Of a stretch of 64,000 nucleotides of DNA, positions 6,384 through 13,547 are shown piece by piece. The position numbers and the translations under genes were made by a program. Under the pieces are notes generated by a model, which was given only the letters and a program-made list of their open reading frames with translations, had not been told where the DNA came from and did no database searches. Source of the stretch: Escherichia coli (GTDB lineage Bacteria; Pseudomonadota; Gammaproteobacteria; Enterobacterales; Enterobacteriaceae). The DNA is taken from NCBI RefSeq assembly GCF_003334785.1, contig NZ_QOWV01000004.1; one strand, given 5' to 3'. Positions within the stretch are counted from its first letter, which is position 1, and every line of letters begins with the position of its first letter.

Positions 6384-6408
6384 ATTCGCCAGACTGTGTC
6401 TGGCGAAT
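6384..6408. repeat. 25-bp palindrome attcgccagac-tgt-gtctggcgaat, 16 bp after gltD stop
   Basis: Perfect 11-bp inverted arms read directly; same family as the copies in and after yhcG. Confidence 0.6.
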
Positions 6409-6927
6409 CAAATTACTGACGAAGTGCGCGTTGTTTTCTGGCAAATGCGGCATGAGCGTTTGACCTTTCCTATAATAGGGATAATTTTCAATAAATTGTG
6501 CTTTGTTCACCAAGTCTGATGAGTGAAGCACATCAAGCAATTTCTCATTTACAATCCGTCTCAATTACTTGTTAACACCTCTGACAATACCGATTCTGCA
6601 AGCTATTCAGTCTTTTCATTCCATGTAAATTGTCTCGATATTAATATACAAAATATGAATATAAAAAACCAATATATTATCCTTAATTATCTATATATTT
6701 TCCTATTTTTCAGCGCAAACATTCATGTAATGAATAATTATCACCACAAACCACCTCACCAGCACCTTATTATTCACATGATCGTAACTATAAAATTCAT
6801 TAAATAAATACATCCCAGCAAGTTGGCTATTTCTGAACGAGTTATTTATTTACATTCACAAACAGATATATATACTGCTTCAGCTTTTTATTTTAAAAAA
6901 TAAATTTGTTATTAAGGATATGTTCAT

Positions 6928-7692
6928 ATGTTTTTCAAAAAGAACCTCACAACAGCTGCTATTTGTGCAGCACTTTCTGTTGCAGCATTCAGTGCCATGG
7001 CAACAGATTCAACTGATACAGAATTAACTATCATCGGCGAGTATACCCCTGGTGCATGTACCCCAGTTGTTACGGGCGGCGGCATTGTTGACTATGGGAA
7101 ACATCATAACAGTGCGCTGAATCCGACCGGTAAAAGTAATAAACTGGTTCAACTGGGCCGCAAAAACAGCACATTAAATATAACCTGCACAGCACCAACG
7201 CTAATTGCTGTAACCTCCAAGGATAACCGTCAGTCGACCATTGTAGCGTTAAACGACACATCCTATATTGAAAAAGCTTATGATACTCTCGTAGATATGA
7301 AGGGAACGAAAAACGCCTTTGGTTTAGGTTCTGCGCCTAATGGACAAAAAATTGGCGCTGCATCCATTGGTATTGACAGGTCTAATGGTGGGATTCACGC
7401 GGCGGACGATACAGGTGAAATTCCTGTCGACCTGATTCAAACTGACCACTGGTCAGCAGCGACCCCCACATGGAAAGCCTCATCTAATGGCGCATTCTGC
7501 TCGCTGACAAGTTGCTCAGCAATCGAGCGCGGTTATTCTGTTGCAAAAACAGGGGAACTGACACCTGTTGCCATTACAGCGGTCACCTTCCCGTTACTGA
7601 TTGATGCTGCGGTAAATGACAATACTATTCTTGGTTCTGATGAAACGATCAAACTGGATGGTAACGTCACTATCAGCGTTCAGTATTTATAA
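6928..7692 (+). CDS. gltF: Periplasmic DUF1120-type fimbrial-like protein, 254 aa, signal peptide
   Basis: ORF 6928..7692; N-terminal signal peptide; paralogous to downstream YhcE/YhcF (shared ACTP..GG.V.YG and C-terminal LDGxxxISVxYL). Confidence 0.85.
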   Translation: MFFKKNLTTAAICAALSVAAFSAMATDSTDTELTIIGEYTPGACTPVVTGGGIVDYGKHHNSALNPTGKSNKLVQLGRKNSTLNITCTAPTLIAVTSKDNRQSTIVALNDTSYIEKAYDTLVDMKGTKNAFGLGSAPNGQKIGAASIGIDRSNGGIHAADDTGEIPVDLIQTDHWSAATPTWKASSNGAFCSLTSCSAIERGYSVAKTGELTPVAITAVTFPLLIDAAVNDNTILGSDETIKLDGNVTISVQYL

Positions 7693-7863
7693 GAACTTGT
7701 AATACAGTTTTTATTTTTACGCATTAACCAGTTAGCTATAACTCGGACAGATTATGCCCTATGACATGGTCTGTCTTAATCAATCTCATCGCAAACAGTG
7801 CATAACATATATTAACAATATGTTTCTGCGTTATTTATCATTATTACAGGAGTTTTAATTTAA

Positions 7864-8538
7864 ATGCTCAGACACATTACATTCACTGTATTTATAACAA
7901 CATCAATGAATACCTTAGCCACAGGGATGGTTCCTGAAACATCAGTATTGCTGGTTGATGAAAAGCGTGGTGAAGCTAGTATTAATATTAAGAATACAGA
8001 TGATCATCCTTCATTGCTTTACACCACCATTGTTGATTTGCCTGAAAGCAATAAATCAATTCGTTTAATCCCGACTCAGCCCGTTATTCGTGTTGAAGCC
8101 GGTCAAGTACAACAGGTTCGATTTTTACTTCAGGCGACTGTTCCTCTGCAATCAGAAGAGCTGAAACGCGTAACGTTCGAAGGTATTCCACCAAAAGATG
8201 ACAAGAGCAGCAGAGTTACTGTTTCAATTCGTCAGGATCTACCTGTACTGATCCACCCGGCTTCCCTGCCGGAAGAGCGAGAGACCTGGAAATTCCTGGA
8301 ATGGCGTAAAAATGGCGACCAAATTGAGATTAGCAACCCCAGTAATTATGTCGTTCGTATGACCTTACAATTTAAAACGCTCCCTTCAGGAAAAACGGGG
8401 GCTATAAATAAGACCTATTTTCTACCACACACCAGTACAACTACTGCATTAACAAACGCTACGGATACAAAAGTCGAGTTTTACCCAGCCAGCCGATATG
8501 GTTATCGCGGTAATAAATATGTCACTGACTTAAAATAA
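7864..8538 (+). CDS. yhcA: Fimbrial periplasmic chaperone (PapD-like), 224 aa
   Basis: ORF 7864..8538; signal peptide; chaperone-like fold recalled for YhcA. Confidence 0.85.
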   Translation: MLRHITFTVFITTSMNTLATGMVPETSVLLVDEKRGEASINIKNTDDHPSLLYTTIVDLPESNKSIRLIPTQPVIRVEAGQVQQVRFLLQATVPLQSEELKRVTFEGIPPKDDKSSRVTVSIRQDLPVLIHPASLPEERETWKFLEWRKNGDQIEISNPSNYVVRMTLQFKTLPSGKTGAINKTYFLPHTSTTTALTNATDTKVEFYPASRYGYRGNKYVTDLK

Positions 8539-8558
8539 CTTTGCCTGGAGCGACAAGG

Positions 8559-11482: not shown

Positions 11483-12195
11483 ACAATGTAAAATTACTGA
11501 TTGCCGGAAGTGCCTTTTTTGCCATGTCAGCGCAAGCCGCTGATAGAGTATCAATTGACGTTAAGGTGACTCTGGAAGCTGCAGCTTGTACTCCAATACT
11601 AAGCAACGGCGGAGTTGTTAACTTCGGTAGTCATTCAGTCAATAGACTTTCAACGCAGCACTACACACAGATTGGAACACGTAATATTAATATGACTATA
11701 ACTTGCGAATCCGCTACCGGCATTGCGATTACCGCTCGTGATACACGAATGGATAGTATGACCACCGGAAAAGATAGTGGGGGTCAGAGTGGTGTAAAAT
11801 ATACCTTAAATGGCGGAGGTTATATTAGCCAGACAACGCGCTTATTCGGCTTAGGGAAAACAAAAGATAATAAAAATATCGGTAGTTATGCCGTGTTAAT
11901 TGATAGCAACAACATTAGTGCCAGCAATGGTAGCCAGACGTTAGCTGTATCAATAGCAGGTGCAGATGCCGTCATAACAGGGCAAAAAAGAGCATGGCAA
12001 ACGCTCACCGCTTATCCGCTTGCAGTCGATCAAAGCTATTATTACACCTTTGTAAAACCAGGTGAAACAACCCCAACTCCTGTAACGAACGCCATTATAC
12101 CGCTTCAGGTGAGCGCATCTATCGCGAATGATTTAGGCGGTTCAGAAAAAATCGAACTTGATGGGAAAGCTGTGATAAGCGTAGTCTACTTGTGA
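11479..12195 (+). CDS. yhcF: DUF1120-type fimbrial-like protein, 238 aa
   Basis: ORF 11479..12195; ATGA overlap with yhcE stop; signal peptide; C-terminus LDGKAVISVVYL resembles GltF. Confidence 0.8.
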   Translation: MNNVKLLIAGSAFFAMSAQAADRVSIDVKVTLEAAACTPILSNGGVVNFGSHSVNRLSTQHYTQIGTRNINMTITCESATGIAITARDTRMDSMTTGKDSGGQSGVKYTLNGGGYISQTTRLFGLGKTKDNKNIGSYAVLIDSNNISASNGSQTLAVSIAGADAVITGQKRAWQTLTAYPLAVDQSYYYTFVKPGETTPTPVTNAIIPLQVSASIANDLGGSEKIELDGKAVISVVYL

Positions 12196-12379
12196 TAACA
12201 ATGCCGGACAGGAGTACTATCAGGCATTCGTTTTATACGATCGGTTAATGTTTCAGGAAAGCTCTTCGCATATCTTGGGGAAAGTAAATGTAATACGCTG
12301 TTCTTAATTGTTCAGTGCTCACCCCCCAGAGTATAGCTCATTCCATTATTCAACTTAGCTCCATATAAAGGGACAGATA

Positions 12380-13507
12380 ATGGAATCGCTCTCAGAAGGA
12401 ACCACAGCAGGCTACCAGCAAATCCACGACGGTATTATTCATCTGGTCGATAGCGCCCGGACGGAAACGGTACGTAGCGTTAACGCGTTAATGACCGCGA
12501 CGTACCAGGAAATTGGCCGACGAATTGTCGAATTTGAACAAGGTGGCGAGGCCAGGGCTGCGTATGGTGCGCAGCTAATCAAGCGACTATCAAAGGATTT
12601 ATGTCTAAGGTATAAGCGTGGGTTCTCTGCAAAAAACTTACGCCAAATGAGGCTTTTTTACCTCTTTTTTCAACATGTTGAAATTCGCCAGACAATGTCT
12701 GGCGAATTAACACCATTGGGAATTCCGCAGACACCGTCTGCAGAATTCCCATCGGCAAAGATTTGGCAGACGCTGTCTGCCAAATCTTTCCCCTTGCCCA
12801 GGTCCACCTACGTCCGTTTACTTTCCGTTAAAAACGCTGACGCCCGCAGCTTTTATGAAAAAGAGACGCTCCGCTGTGGCTGGTCTGTTCGCCAGCTAGA
12901 GCGGCAAATTGCGACCCAGTTTTATGAGCGGACACTACTGTCACATGACAAATCAGCCATGCTGCAACAACACGCTCCTGCCGAGACGCATATTCTTCCG
13001 CAACAGGCGATACGCGATCCCTTTGTGCTCGAATTTCTGGAATTGAAAGATGAATATTCAGAATCCGATTTTGAGGAGGCGCTGATCAACCACCTGATGG
13101 ATTTCATGCTGGAACTTGGGGATGATTTTGCCTTTGTTGGTCGGCAGCGAAGGTTACGCATTGATGACAACTGGTTTCGTGTCGATCTGCTGTTTTTCCA
13201 CCGCCGTTTACGCTGCCTGCTAATCGTCGATCTAAAAGTGGGCAAATTCAGCTATAGCGATGCCGGACAGATGAATATGTATCTCAACTACGCCAAAGAG
13301 CACTGGACGCTACCGGATGAAAATCCGCCCATCGGTCTGGTTCTCTGTGCAGAGAAAGGAGCCGGAGAAGCGCATTATGCTCTGGCAGGTTTGCCTAACA
13401 CCGTTCTGGCAAGCGAATATAAGATGCAACTACCTGATGAGAAACGACTCGCAGATGAACTCGTTCGAACACAGGCGGTGCTAGAGGAAGGCTATAGACG
13501 CCGTTAA
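12380..13507 (+). CDS. yhcG: DUF1016 (YhcG-family) protein with C-terminal PD-(D/E)xK nuclease-like domain, 375 aa
   Basis: ORF 12380..13507; C-terminal region has ...FRVD(269)LLFF...LLIVD(284)LK(286)VGK... consistent with PD-(D/E)xK motifs II/III. Confidence 0.8.
   Translation: MESLSEGTTAGYQQIHDGIIHLVDSARTETVRSVNALMTATYQEIGRRIVEFEQGGEARAAYGAQLIKRLSKDLCLRYKRGFSAKNLRQMRLFYLFFQHVEIRQTMSGELTPLGIPQTPSAEFPSAKIWQTLSAKSFPLPRSTYVRLLSVKNADARSFYEKETLRCGWSVRQLERQIATQFYERTLLSHDKSAMLQQHAPAETHILPQQAIRDPFVLEFLELKDEYSESDFEEALINHLMDFMLELGDDFAFVGRQRRLRIDDNWFRVDLLFFHRRLRCLLIVDLKVGKFSYSDAGQMNMYLNYAKEHWTLPDENPPIGLVLCAEKGAGEAHYALAGLPNTVLASEYKMQLPDEKRLADELVRTQAVLEEGYRRR
12680..12796 (+). repeat. Three tandem in-frame 39-bp units inside yhcG, each with a 27-33 bp palindrome (12682..12708, 12719..12749, 12757..12789)
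   Basis: Exact 39-bp periodicity; units encode EIRQTMSGELTPL / GIPQTPSAEFPSA / KIWQTLSAKSFPL; inverted arms verified base by base. Confidence 0.75.
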
Positions 13508-13522
13508 TTTCAGCGGTTTCGA

Positions 13523-13547
13523 ATTCTGCAGACAGTGTCTGCAGAAT
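13523..13547. repeat. 25-bp palindrome attctgcagaca-g-tgtctgcagaat, 16 bp after yhcG stop
   Basis: Perfect 12-bp arms; same core as the in-gene copies; lies between convergent yhcG and yhcH. Confidence 0.6.

Follow-up and report, generated by a model that had tools for sequence, protein, structure and literature searches.

A palindromic element within yhcG-family genes and its probable extragenic copies at the gltD-nanQ locus of Escherichia coli

Why should two closely similar palindromes stand just behind gltD and just behind yhcG in Escherichia coli, with a block of fimbrial genes between them? The question arises in a 64,000-nucleotide stretch of contig NZ_QOWV01000004.1 (here called the window, along which positions are counted). 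A first-pass annotation, made from the sequence, had noticed the two palindromes, PAL1 and PAL5, and had offered island boundaries, integration-site remnants, or noncanonical terminators as their possible meaning. We find that the same palindrome family recurs inside yhcG and throughout its relatives, where the conserved feature is the ability to pair rather than a sequence or a peptide. The explanation of the whole that we favor, with moderate confidence, is that yhcG genes carry a pairing element from which the extragenic copies in E. coli derive, these copies acting as hairpins at transcript 3′ ends and as breakpoints. The yhcG coding sequence is the home of a five-copy family in the window, with PAL1 and PAL5 as its two extragenic members; as RNA stem-loops, these two would make or protect transcript 3′ ends by termination or by blocking exonucleases, and as short repeats and hairpin-forming DNA they would be places at which the locus breaks and rejoins.

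The stop codons of gltD and yhcG end at 6368 and 13507, and the palindromes start 16 nt past these positions with 15 nt between; the coordinates and the 16-bp offset of the first-pass annotation are exact. Its grouping of PAL1 and PAL5 as one family is likewise borne out. The two are identical at 20 of 25 positions, and the five differences comprise two compensatory pairs (positions 5/21 and 6/20) and one change in the loop. A degenerate pattern (ATTCNNCAGACNNNGTCTGNNGAAT, up to two mismatches) has five matches in the window compared with 0.00 expected from 100 shuffles; all lie at the gltD-yhcG locus, and three of the five are coding. PAL1 and PAL5 are predicted to form RNA hairpins of −16.6 to −19.4 kcal/mol (z −3.7 to −5.5), with PAL1 at −19.2 kcal/mol (z −5.5). 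No Rfam family matched 6000..14200 in a cmscan that admitted E-values up to 1. BLAST with a PAL1-like sequence against 5426 complete E. coli genomes found 1–4 places per genome and never more than four, a coarse check of nondispersal, given that a palindrome used as the query is hit on either strand and that more divergent copies score under the cutoff.

The three coding copies, which the first-pass annotation had missed, lie in the yhcG reading frame with a period of 39 nt, or 13 codons (table 1). The stem of unit 3 is perfect by virtue of three compensatory changes (ATTTGG...CCAAAT), and the 131-nt stretch containing the three units folds at −67.6 kcal/mol compared with −28.4 in shuffles (z −11.4). 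The middle of the stem varies among copies, reading CGCC, CCGC, and TGGC in the window; in allele L140, also from E. coli, it reads GTGC and CTCC. Enterobacterial YhcG proteins have one to three copies of I-x-Q-T-x-S-x-[E/K/Q] at one position, and differ in length because the number of units (one, two, or three) differs. Residue 2 of this peptide covaries with residues 7/8 as a palindrome demands (V/A-Q, L/A-E, R/G-E, W/A-K, and H/G-E).

The homologue sample comprised 80 loci at 54–66% identity, from a search seeded with a 12-sequence alignment, together with four enterobacterial loci; the sources were Beta- and Gammaproteobacteria, Acidobacteria, Planctomycetes, Cyanobacteria, Chloroflexota, Verrucomicrobia, and the archaeal Methanoperedens. 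A palindrome of at least 8 pairs is centered 200–520 nt into the gene in 82 of these 84 loci, in one to four copies 36–51 nt apart, and true units share one codon phase throughout the sample. Palindromes of at least 9 pairs are concentrated in two 100-nt bins, which hold 111, compared with 1–6 in most other bins and 11 just past the gene end. The family unit is a near-perfect palindrome just upstream of the codons for LSWSHY, with an 11-bp stem (arms 10–15 nt) and a loop of 1–3 nt. It extends to more distant relatives: palindromes are present in four of four homologues at 38–41% identity to E. coli YhcG, and among viral contigs (31–60% identity, GC 0.23–0.62) 29 of 32 loci have one in the 200 nt that precede the W codon of LSWSHY, with −18 relative to that codon as the commonest center.

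Neither the stem sequences (CAGAC/GTCTG, CGAC/GTCG, GAGAC/GTCTC, CGAAT/ATTCG, and CACGC/GCGTG) nor the encoded peptides (ISESLIRKS, IRATLSLKS, SHALRDEL, GSTLWNQL, and ICYTLCSKL) are constant across the family. For a homologue encoding IRDALRLES, the palindrome ATTCGAGACGC.CTGCGTCTCGAAT was deduced from the peptide beforehand and then confirmed in the DNA (GATTCGAGACGCGCTGCGTCTCGAATC). A metagenomic DUF1016 gene (L091 95..1294, ∼39% identity) contains four units, three in one frame and one in another, encoding EIHNSVVEI-type and NSATQLRKS-type peptides; here the palindrome has been kept and the frame has not. The first-pass annotation had named palindromes at many unrelated loci as something that would refute its reading. 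This holds in an unexpected manner, since they do occur in hundreds of unrelated genomes, but always within yhcG homologues, the loci having been sampled by YhcG similarity. Literature on DUF1016, yhcG, PDC-S02, and conserved hairpins in defense nuclease genes does not describe the palindrome, and a palindrome in the reading frame of the yhcG family is apparently an undescribed element. Other inverted repeats were seen in some of these loci. At L035 (1777..1852) the facing arms of two closely spaced units make up a further inverted repeat that overlaps them (TGTCTGGAGAATCCGCAATTCTCCAGACA). The yhcG homologues of Bordetella, Burkholderiales, and Xylophilus (L043, L056, and L065) are closely followed by an unrelated hairpin, CCCCGCGCTTCGTGCCGAATCGCGG, which lies ∼1150–1200 nt past the gene start in several betaproteobacterial loci and may be a lineage-specific repeat or terminator.

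The persistence of pairing through such divergence can be quantified. Across 116 distinct units, the 11 stem pairs are standard in 93.7% of cells compared with 73.0% in column shuffles and 19–47% with slid partners, the percentage paired being inflated because the units were picked by palindrome search. Double-sided changes number 229 compared with 58 in shuffles (0 of 500 shuffles reach 229) and the covariation score is 0.489 compared with 0.118, statistics that ignore kinship among the genes. Unit selection and kinship both count against our reading of these figures; the tests of position, codon phase, codon usage, and resampling depend less on palindrome-based selection. In 47 high-GC genes (GC at least 0.58), the isoleucine of the unit is encoded by ATT in 54 of 55 cases compared with 17% elsewhere in the same genes, and the serine by TCT in 55 of 60 cases compared with 4% elsewhere. 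When synonymous codons are redrawn at the frequencies of the gene concerned, pairing drops from 10.23 to 5.16 of 11 pairs, and 122 of 122 units lie above their resampled mean. The edge of the stem is sharp, pair 12 being A-T in 98% of units and pairs 13 and 14 being paired in 49% and 31%, respectively, with pairing at background level past pair 13. Base identity is conserved at the foot of the stem (ATT/AAT) and at its top (AC/GT). What persists is intramolecular pairing, or the copying of one arm onto the other.

Two-fold symmetry of this kind could also mark double-stranded DNA operators for a dimeric regulator, possibly the N-terminal domain of YhcG, rather than hairpins. Such operators would account for the conservation of an outer block (ATT/AAT) and an inner one (CAGAC/GTCTG) and for the DNA-like mismatch statistics described below, but pairs 6–9 are complementary in 81–98% of units despite occurring as up to four pair types. 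Because these middle pairs differ between copies within one gene yet stay complementary, operators fit poorly: one protein cannot specify all of the variants, and spacer bases that are not contacted need no symmetry. We regard this reading as improbable.

The main rival is a functionless palindrome in a tolerant linker, upheld by template switching (quasi-palindrome correction) that mimics compensation. Stem mismatches are G.T in 22 cases and A.C in 37, with no preference for wobble pairs, which tells against our own reading insofar as it weakens a role in mRNA; the near-perfect Watson–Crick stems and these counts are explained by structure in DNA, or by templated correction, no less well than by RNA. 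The peptide lies in a predicted disordered linker, units are readily duplicated and lost, and PAL1, PAL5, and the palindrome of a further allele (arrangement D, below) stay perfect while the remnants adjacent to them decay. Quasi-palindrome correction in E. coli is, moreover, much faster than base substitution, and its hot spots are like the yhcG units in being near-perfect short palindromes whose arms change together. It is a mutational process, however, and leaves unexplained a fixed stem length with a sharp cutoff at pairs 12–14, the conserved bases at foot and top, and the retention of the element in nearly all members down to ∼31–40% identity and across GC contents of 0.23–0.62. Palindromes are deletion-prone, and their long retention without selection is unexpected. 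We therefore consider a neutral origin unlikely.

What kind of gene carries the pairing element? YhcG matches the Pfam families DUF1016_N and YhcG_C, the latter of the PD-(D/E)XK type, with E-values of 1.3e-36 and 1.6e-56, and the PADLOC candidate defense family PDC-S02 at 2.8e-131. The DUF1016/YhcG family comprises 21,241 clusters at 50% identity (E up to 0.001), found in type I restriction operons, on plasmids, in chromosomes, and on phage-like contigs. Homologues have an HsdM-like methyltransferase gene upstream and HsdS downstream, and elsewhere a conjugative relaxase, ParA, or ParB; one distant homologue is flanked by MobC/NikA-like and relaxase genes. A sequence search of the PDB with YhcG matched no solved structure. 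In the AlphaFold2 model the units encode a coil (residues 101–125, predicted local distance difference test below 50) between helices 84–96 and 141–148, and the modeled nuclease domain resembles NucS/EndoMS, Bax1, and Can2/Card1. Mismatched or branched DNA is the substrate of the nucleases NucS/EndoMS and Bax1, and the predicted likeness to them offers a lead to the role of the element.

Our preferred hypothesis for the element inside yhcG is a fixed-length stem-loop recognized by YhcG itself, which as self-ligand or self-substrate would keep down the expression of a potentially toxic nuclease. We rate this as possible but rather doubtful; it is drawn from analogy, which counts against it, and the DNA form would be slightly likelier than the mRNA form because G.U-type mismatches are not favored. 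The broader proposal, that the palindrome is a family-defining nucleic-acid part of DUF1016/YhcG genes recognized by the nuclease or by a partner, we put forward tentatively, at somewhat less than even chances.

How, then, did copies come to lie outside the gene? In a read-through yhcG allele (P0021), PAL5 and its left flank translate as FQRFRILQTLSGES, to be compared with FQRIEILQTLSAEF inside the gene, and the 25 nt of PAL5 match internal unit 1 of Pseudocitrobacter yhcG without a difference. Both E. coli and a cryptic Escherichia clade have PAL5; Pseudocitrobacter and Citrobacter koseri lack it. From these alignments PAL5 appears to be a copy, roughly 45 nt long, of an internal yhcG segment that arose within Escherichia. 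PAL1 is followed by ∼70 nt in the same orientation as yhcG that give a tblastn alignment of IRQTVSGESNY*RSARCFLANAA*AFDLS with yhcG 'IRQTLSGES-CHLAQLAKSFPLP' (45% identity across 31 aa; E about 1e-3, the database being very small). This similarity points, with weak to moderate strength, to PAL1 as probably the palindrome left over from a yhcG fragment that decayed at the left edge of the fimbrial insertion. Among 130 loci including 1.5-kb flanks, no copy of a unit (up to 3 mismatches in 21 nt) was found outside the linker zone except in Escherichia, and extragenic copies therefore seem special to that genus.

The extragenic copies also bear on transcript ends. Term-seq data for strain MG1655 give a “primary” gltD 3′ end at 3360660(+) (Adams et al. 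2021; PMC7815308, supplementary file 1), in what is, judged by position in the file, the minimal-medium sheet. The 61-nt sequence of this entry corresponds to 6362..6422 of the window, with the 3′ end at its position 51, just beyond the PAL1 stem (table 1), and gltBD transcripts therefore end at, or are trimmed to, PAL1. This identifies PAL1 as the transcript-end hairpin of gltBD. The first-pass annotation had remarked that neither palindrome is followed by a U-tract, and both the sequence (3′ of PAL1, CAAAUUACUG; 3′ of PAL5, CUUUAAAACG on the plus strand and UCGAAACCGC on the minus strand) and a terminator and promoter scan, which flags neither, agree with this. Its suggestion of noncanonical terminators thus stands for PAL1, with a mapped 3′ end and no U-tract, but gains nothing at PAL5, for which no 3′ end is listed.

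Other signals in the same data lie nearby. Bicyclomycin treatment revealed Rho-dependent regions within gltF (MG1655 3361307, ∼7059 in the window) and in the 5′ part of yhcG (3367906, ∼12459, a conversion that assumes the K-12 IS5 insertion in yhcE) (PMC7815308). The gltF signal could reflect transcripts passing PAL1 or arising from gltF's own promoter. A strong minus-strand 3′ end at MG1655 3367641 with ∼67,600 reads is assigned to G0-10703, an antisense small RNA at the end of yhcF (PMC7815308), and coincides with a hairpin after yhcF (AATGCCGGACAGG...CAGGCATT, ∼12196..12250) that seems to work in both directions.

Could PAL1 and PAL5 be ordinary terminators that evolved independently, their likeness to yhcG being coincidental? 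Both lie just after stop codons and an RNA 3′ end falls just past PAL1. An allele with a single palindrome between gltD and nanQ (arrangement D) also has 15-bp arms (ATAAATTCGCCAGAC...) and A/U-rich flanks on both strands (UUAUAAAA and UUAUUGUU); its palindrome folds at −21.6 and −21.5 kcal/mol, which widens the range of stem-loop energies to −16.6 to −21.6 kcal/mol (z −3.7 to −7.4), and its sequence suggests a bidirectional terminator serving gltD and nanQ, which converge. Coincidence is nevertheless hard to credit, and of the explanations considered here we give this one the least weight as an account of origin; present service as 3′-end hairpins is part of the explanation that we favor. No chance matches to the pattern are expected and U-tracts are lacking in the window; PAL5 is identical over 25 nt to the Pseudocitrobacter unit, with homology continuing into its left flank; and the gltD terminator of the ancestral arrangement is another hairpin, which three genera have in common. 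This older hairpin (CAGCGCCGCC...GGCGGCGCTG), found in E. coli genomes that lack the fimbrial genes (arrangement B), is common to the Escherichia clade and Pseudocitrobacter.

Is the enclosed block an island of which the palindromes are the boundaries? All 5426 E. coli genomes match part of 6200..13700, and typing by junction-specific queries resolves four main arrangements that account for 98% of them and for the variable structure of this locus. Arrangement A, that of the window, reads gltD-PAL1-spacer-fimbrial genes-yhcG-PAL5-nanQ (1223 genomes). Arrangement B reads gltD-yhcG-PAL5-nanQ, with neither the fimbrial genes nor a palindrome after gltD (3140 genomes, arrangement C included). Arrangement C resembles B, except that yhcG stops with the last base of unit 3, beyond which lies unrelated DNA containing a small open reading frame (ORF) (722 genomes). 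Arrangement D reads gltD-one palindrome-nanQ, without yhcG (947 genomes), its left flank matching that of PAL1 and its right flank that of PAL5. Because gltD is followed by yhcG without fimbrial genes in Salmonella, C. koseri, Pseudocitrobacter, and the cryptic Escherichia clade, in all of which the order is gltB-gltD-yhcG, yhcG is ancestral at this locus; arrangement B is the ancestral form, and A, C, and D are derived. Arrangements A and D share a junction directly after TAAGC, where GAGGTAACAAT(G/A)A precedes the palindrome.

Alignments with E. coli (L001), the Escherichia clade (L093), and Pseudocitrobacter (L008), together with the GC profile, place the edges of the fimbrial insertion (table 1). 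It is ∼5.9 kb long, and homology to arrangement B picks up again 130 nt before the yhcG start. PAL1 falls within the insertion, 13 nt from its left edge, and PAL5 is 1.3 kb past its right edge; since the right end of the insertion is at ∼12250, PAL5 is not an island boundary, and the pair of palindromes encloses the fimbrial island together with an older resident gene, yhcG. The first-pass proposal of palindromes as island boundaries is thus largely overturned. Its prediction of breakpoints at the palindromes in relatives holds for the 947 genomes with one palindrome but fails for the fimbrial insertion. Upstream of yhcG, 12250..12380 and L001 1720..1852 are roughly 75–80% identical by eye between arrangements A and B, compared with ∼97% in yhcG coding sequence, and this drop suggests a recombination boundary near the start codon.

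An attachment-site-like origin, in which PAL1 and PAL5 are boundaries or integration remnants of an acquired gltF-yhcADEF-yhcG island, might appeal to the AT-rich fimbrial genes and to the single-palindrome genomes, which resemble an empty site. Deletion between two copies accounts for those genomes equally well, however, and the gltD-yhcG order without fimbrial genes in the four relatives and in 3140 E. coli genomes, the position of PAL5 beyond the insertion, and the occurrence of the same palindromes within yhcG homologues of unrelated genomes all speak against it. No integrase appears among the genes listed for 6200..13700 in E. coli (RefSeq, 100% identical region), which include gltD, the fimbrial genes, yhcG, and nanQ; yhcG is itself a nuclease homologue, and the repeats are not at the insertion ends. 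The suggestion of integration-site remnants consequently loses most of its ground, and we judge this origin very improbable.

In ATCC 8739, which has arrangement C (L003 2259..2725), there are ∼470 nt of unrelated DNA with a right junction at the nanQ stop, and a 101-aa ORF within this DNA is annotated “transposase”; NCBIfam and PADLOC gave no match to that ORF. A rare form in E. coli E22 (L004 1..4000) has a gltD-nanQ island with DUF5682 and VWA-domain genes and two hypothetical genes, and NCBIfam gave no match to two ORFs of this island. It retains a 123-nt fragment of the N-terminal region of yhcG that does not include the palindromes. With this further occupant, the intergenic site between gltD and nanQ behaves as an integration hot spot.

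Several rearrangements do end at palindromes. The allele of 722 genomes truncates yhcG exactly at the last base of unit 3 (12785). In ATCC 43886 (L139 1501..2330), one end of IS1 stands 2 nt beyond PAL1 and the other directly adjoins the interior of unit 3, corresponding to 6410 and 12764 of the window; the fimbrial genes and the 5′ portion of yhcG have been deleted. Alleles of yhcG have gained or lost whole 13-codon units, one deletion from unit 1 having occurred via an 8-nt microhomology. The 947 arrangement-D genomes have one palindrome with the outer flanks of PAL1 on one side and of PAL5 on the other, as after a deletion between PAL1 and PAL5 or at an empty site. This coincidence of breakpoints is observed directly and supports the palindromes as recurrent, independent sites of breaking and rejoining, the mechanism of which is inferred. 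The locus offers several cases from nature in which deletions, an IS1-associated deletion, and a gene truncation end at short palindromes.

Three further points weigh against the explanation we favor. The similarity of PAL1 to yhcG is short and weak. Arrangement D is not the simple product of recombination between PAL1 and PAL5, since its right flank contains an insertion of 8 nt and its two arms are PAL1-like, so the deletion is old or its history more complex. The Term-seq tables (PMC7815308) list no 3′ end at PAL5 or at the internal units.

The element resembles several known systems without coinciding with any. In its manner of working it is a stem-loop cis-element, which at PAL1 resembles a terminator or a stabilizer of the 3′ end. 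Like an intrinsic or bidirectional terminator, it is a GC-containing stem-loop after a stop codon or between convergent genes, with a 3′ end after PAL1; unlike one, PAL1 and PAL5 lack a U-tract and the element lies in ORFs in hundreds of genomes, where a terminator does not fit because termination would abolish the protein. Repetitive extragenic palindromic (REP) sequences and bacterial interspersed mosaic elements are extragenic palindromes at gene 3′ ends that can stabilize upstream mRNA and are rearrangement hot spots; REP sequences, however, are dispersed, extragenic, and present in hundreds of copies, whereas the PAL family is confined to one locus and has a coding home. Rickettsia palindromic elements are in-frame palindromic DNA within genes, whose added peptide is tolerated, but they are mobile and enter many genes of one genus, whereas the yhcG element belongs to one gene family across phyla, at one position, and is vertically associated with it. 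ToxI of type III toxin–antitoxin systems and clustered regularly interspaced short palindromic repeats (CRISPR) are similar in being short structured repeats with a 36–51-nt period, linked to a nuclease gene in a defense context; theirs are noncoding, outside the ORF, and processed by the nuclease, whereas yhcG units are translated and often single.

Four other candidates were dropped on reading the sequences. Integron attC sites were set aside, as was a frameshift stimulator, no conserved slippery site being present upstream. An oriT hairpin was rejected because relaxase neighbors occur at some loci and not in E. coli or in restriction operons, and restriction sites because EcoRI and PstI sites are found in some copies only.

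The genes of the locus are listed in table 1 with the other features. From gltF to yhcF they form a chaperone-usher fimbrial block. The spacer between the gltD stop and the gltF ATG (6928) is 559 nt long. GC content is 0.31 in 6501..7000 and 0.37–0.48 over the fimbrial genes, compared with 0.53–0.60 in gltBD and 0.54–0.60 from nanK to nanT; this profile confirms what the first-pass annotation had said of AT-richer fimbrial genes preceded by an AT-rich spacer, and it is what one would expect of an acquired segment.

Table 1. Positions of the palindromes, associated features, and genes of the gltD-nanQ locus in the window
Feature	Position	Strand	Description	Basis
PAL1	6384..6408	+	ATTCGCCAGAC-TGT-GTCTGGCGAAT; 11-bp arms; extragenic	Sequence, pattern match, RNA fold
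PAL5 with 15-nt left flank	13508..13547 (palindrome 13523..13547)	+	ATTCTGCAGACA-G-TGTCTGCAGAAT; directly after yhcG stop	
Internal unit 1	12683..12707	+	ATTCGCCAGACAATGTCTGGCGAAT; encodes IRQTMSGE	Pattern match
Internal unit 2	12722..12746	+	ATTCCGCAGACACCGTCTGCAGAAT; encodes IPQTPSAE; one stem mismatch	
Internal unit 3	12761..12785	+	ATTTGGCAGACGCTGTCTGCCAAAT; encodes IWQTLSAK; arms reach 18 nt (12754..12792)	
Probable decayed yhcG fragment	6384..6476	+	PAL1 unit and ∼70 nt, same orientation as yhcG	tblastn
gltD “primary” 3′ end (E. coli K-12)	6412	+	4 nt past PAL1 stem	Term-seq (PMC7815308)
Segment missing from ancestral arrangement	6371..12250 (right edge approximate)	+	PAL1, AT-rich spacer, gltF-yhcA-yhcD-yhcE-yhcF	Alignments, GC profile
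gltD	4950..6368	+	Stop precedes PAL1	ORF list; annotation in matching E. coli records
gltF	6928..7692	+	Fimbrial block (6928..12195)	ORF; RefSeq name of 100% identical match
yhcA	7864..8538	+	Fimbrial block	ORF; RefSeq name of 100% identical match
yhcD	8541..10940	+	Fimbrial block	ORF; RefSeq name of 100% identical match
yhcE	10931..11482	+	Fimbrial block	ORF; RefSeq name of 100% identical match
yhcF	11479..12195	+	Fimbrial block	ORF; RefSeq name of 100% identical match
yhcG	12380..13507	+	DUF1016_N and YhcG_C PD-(D/E)XK nuclease	Pfam, PADLOC, translation, AlphaFold2 model
nanQ (yhcH)	13567..14031	−	Convergent with yhcG, PAL5 between both stops	ORF list, annotation

In bacteria, an archaeon, and viral contigs, a base-paired element appears to override codon preference and to dictate part of a protein sequence. 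For annotators this means that the short repeats in YhcG proteins reflect selection on DNA or RNA and not on the peptide. DUF1016/YhcG is a very large family of predicted nucleases, and the element would provide a testable handle on how these genes are controlled or on what they recognize. If the palindrome is indeed a family-defining part recognized by the nuclease or a partner, gene and hairpin would together form a two-part system, for example one of self-limiting expression or one in which a defense nuclease carries a built-in substrate or sensor, and the extragenic copies in E. coli would be relics reused as transcript-end hairpins.

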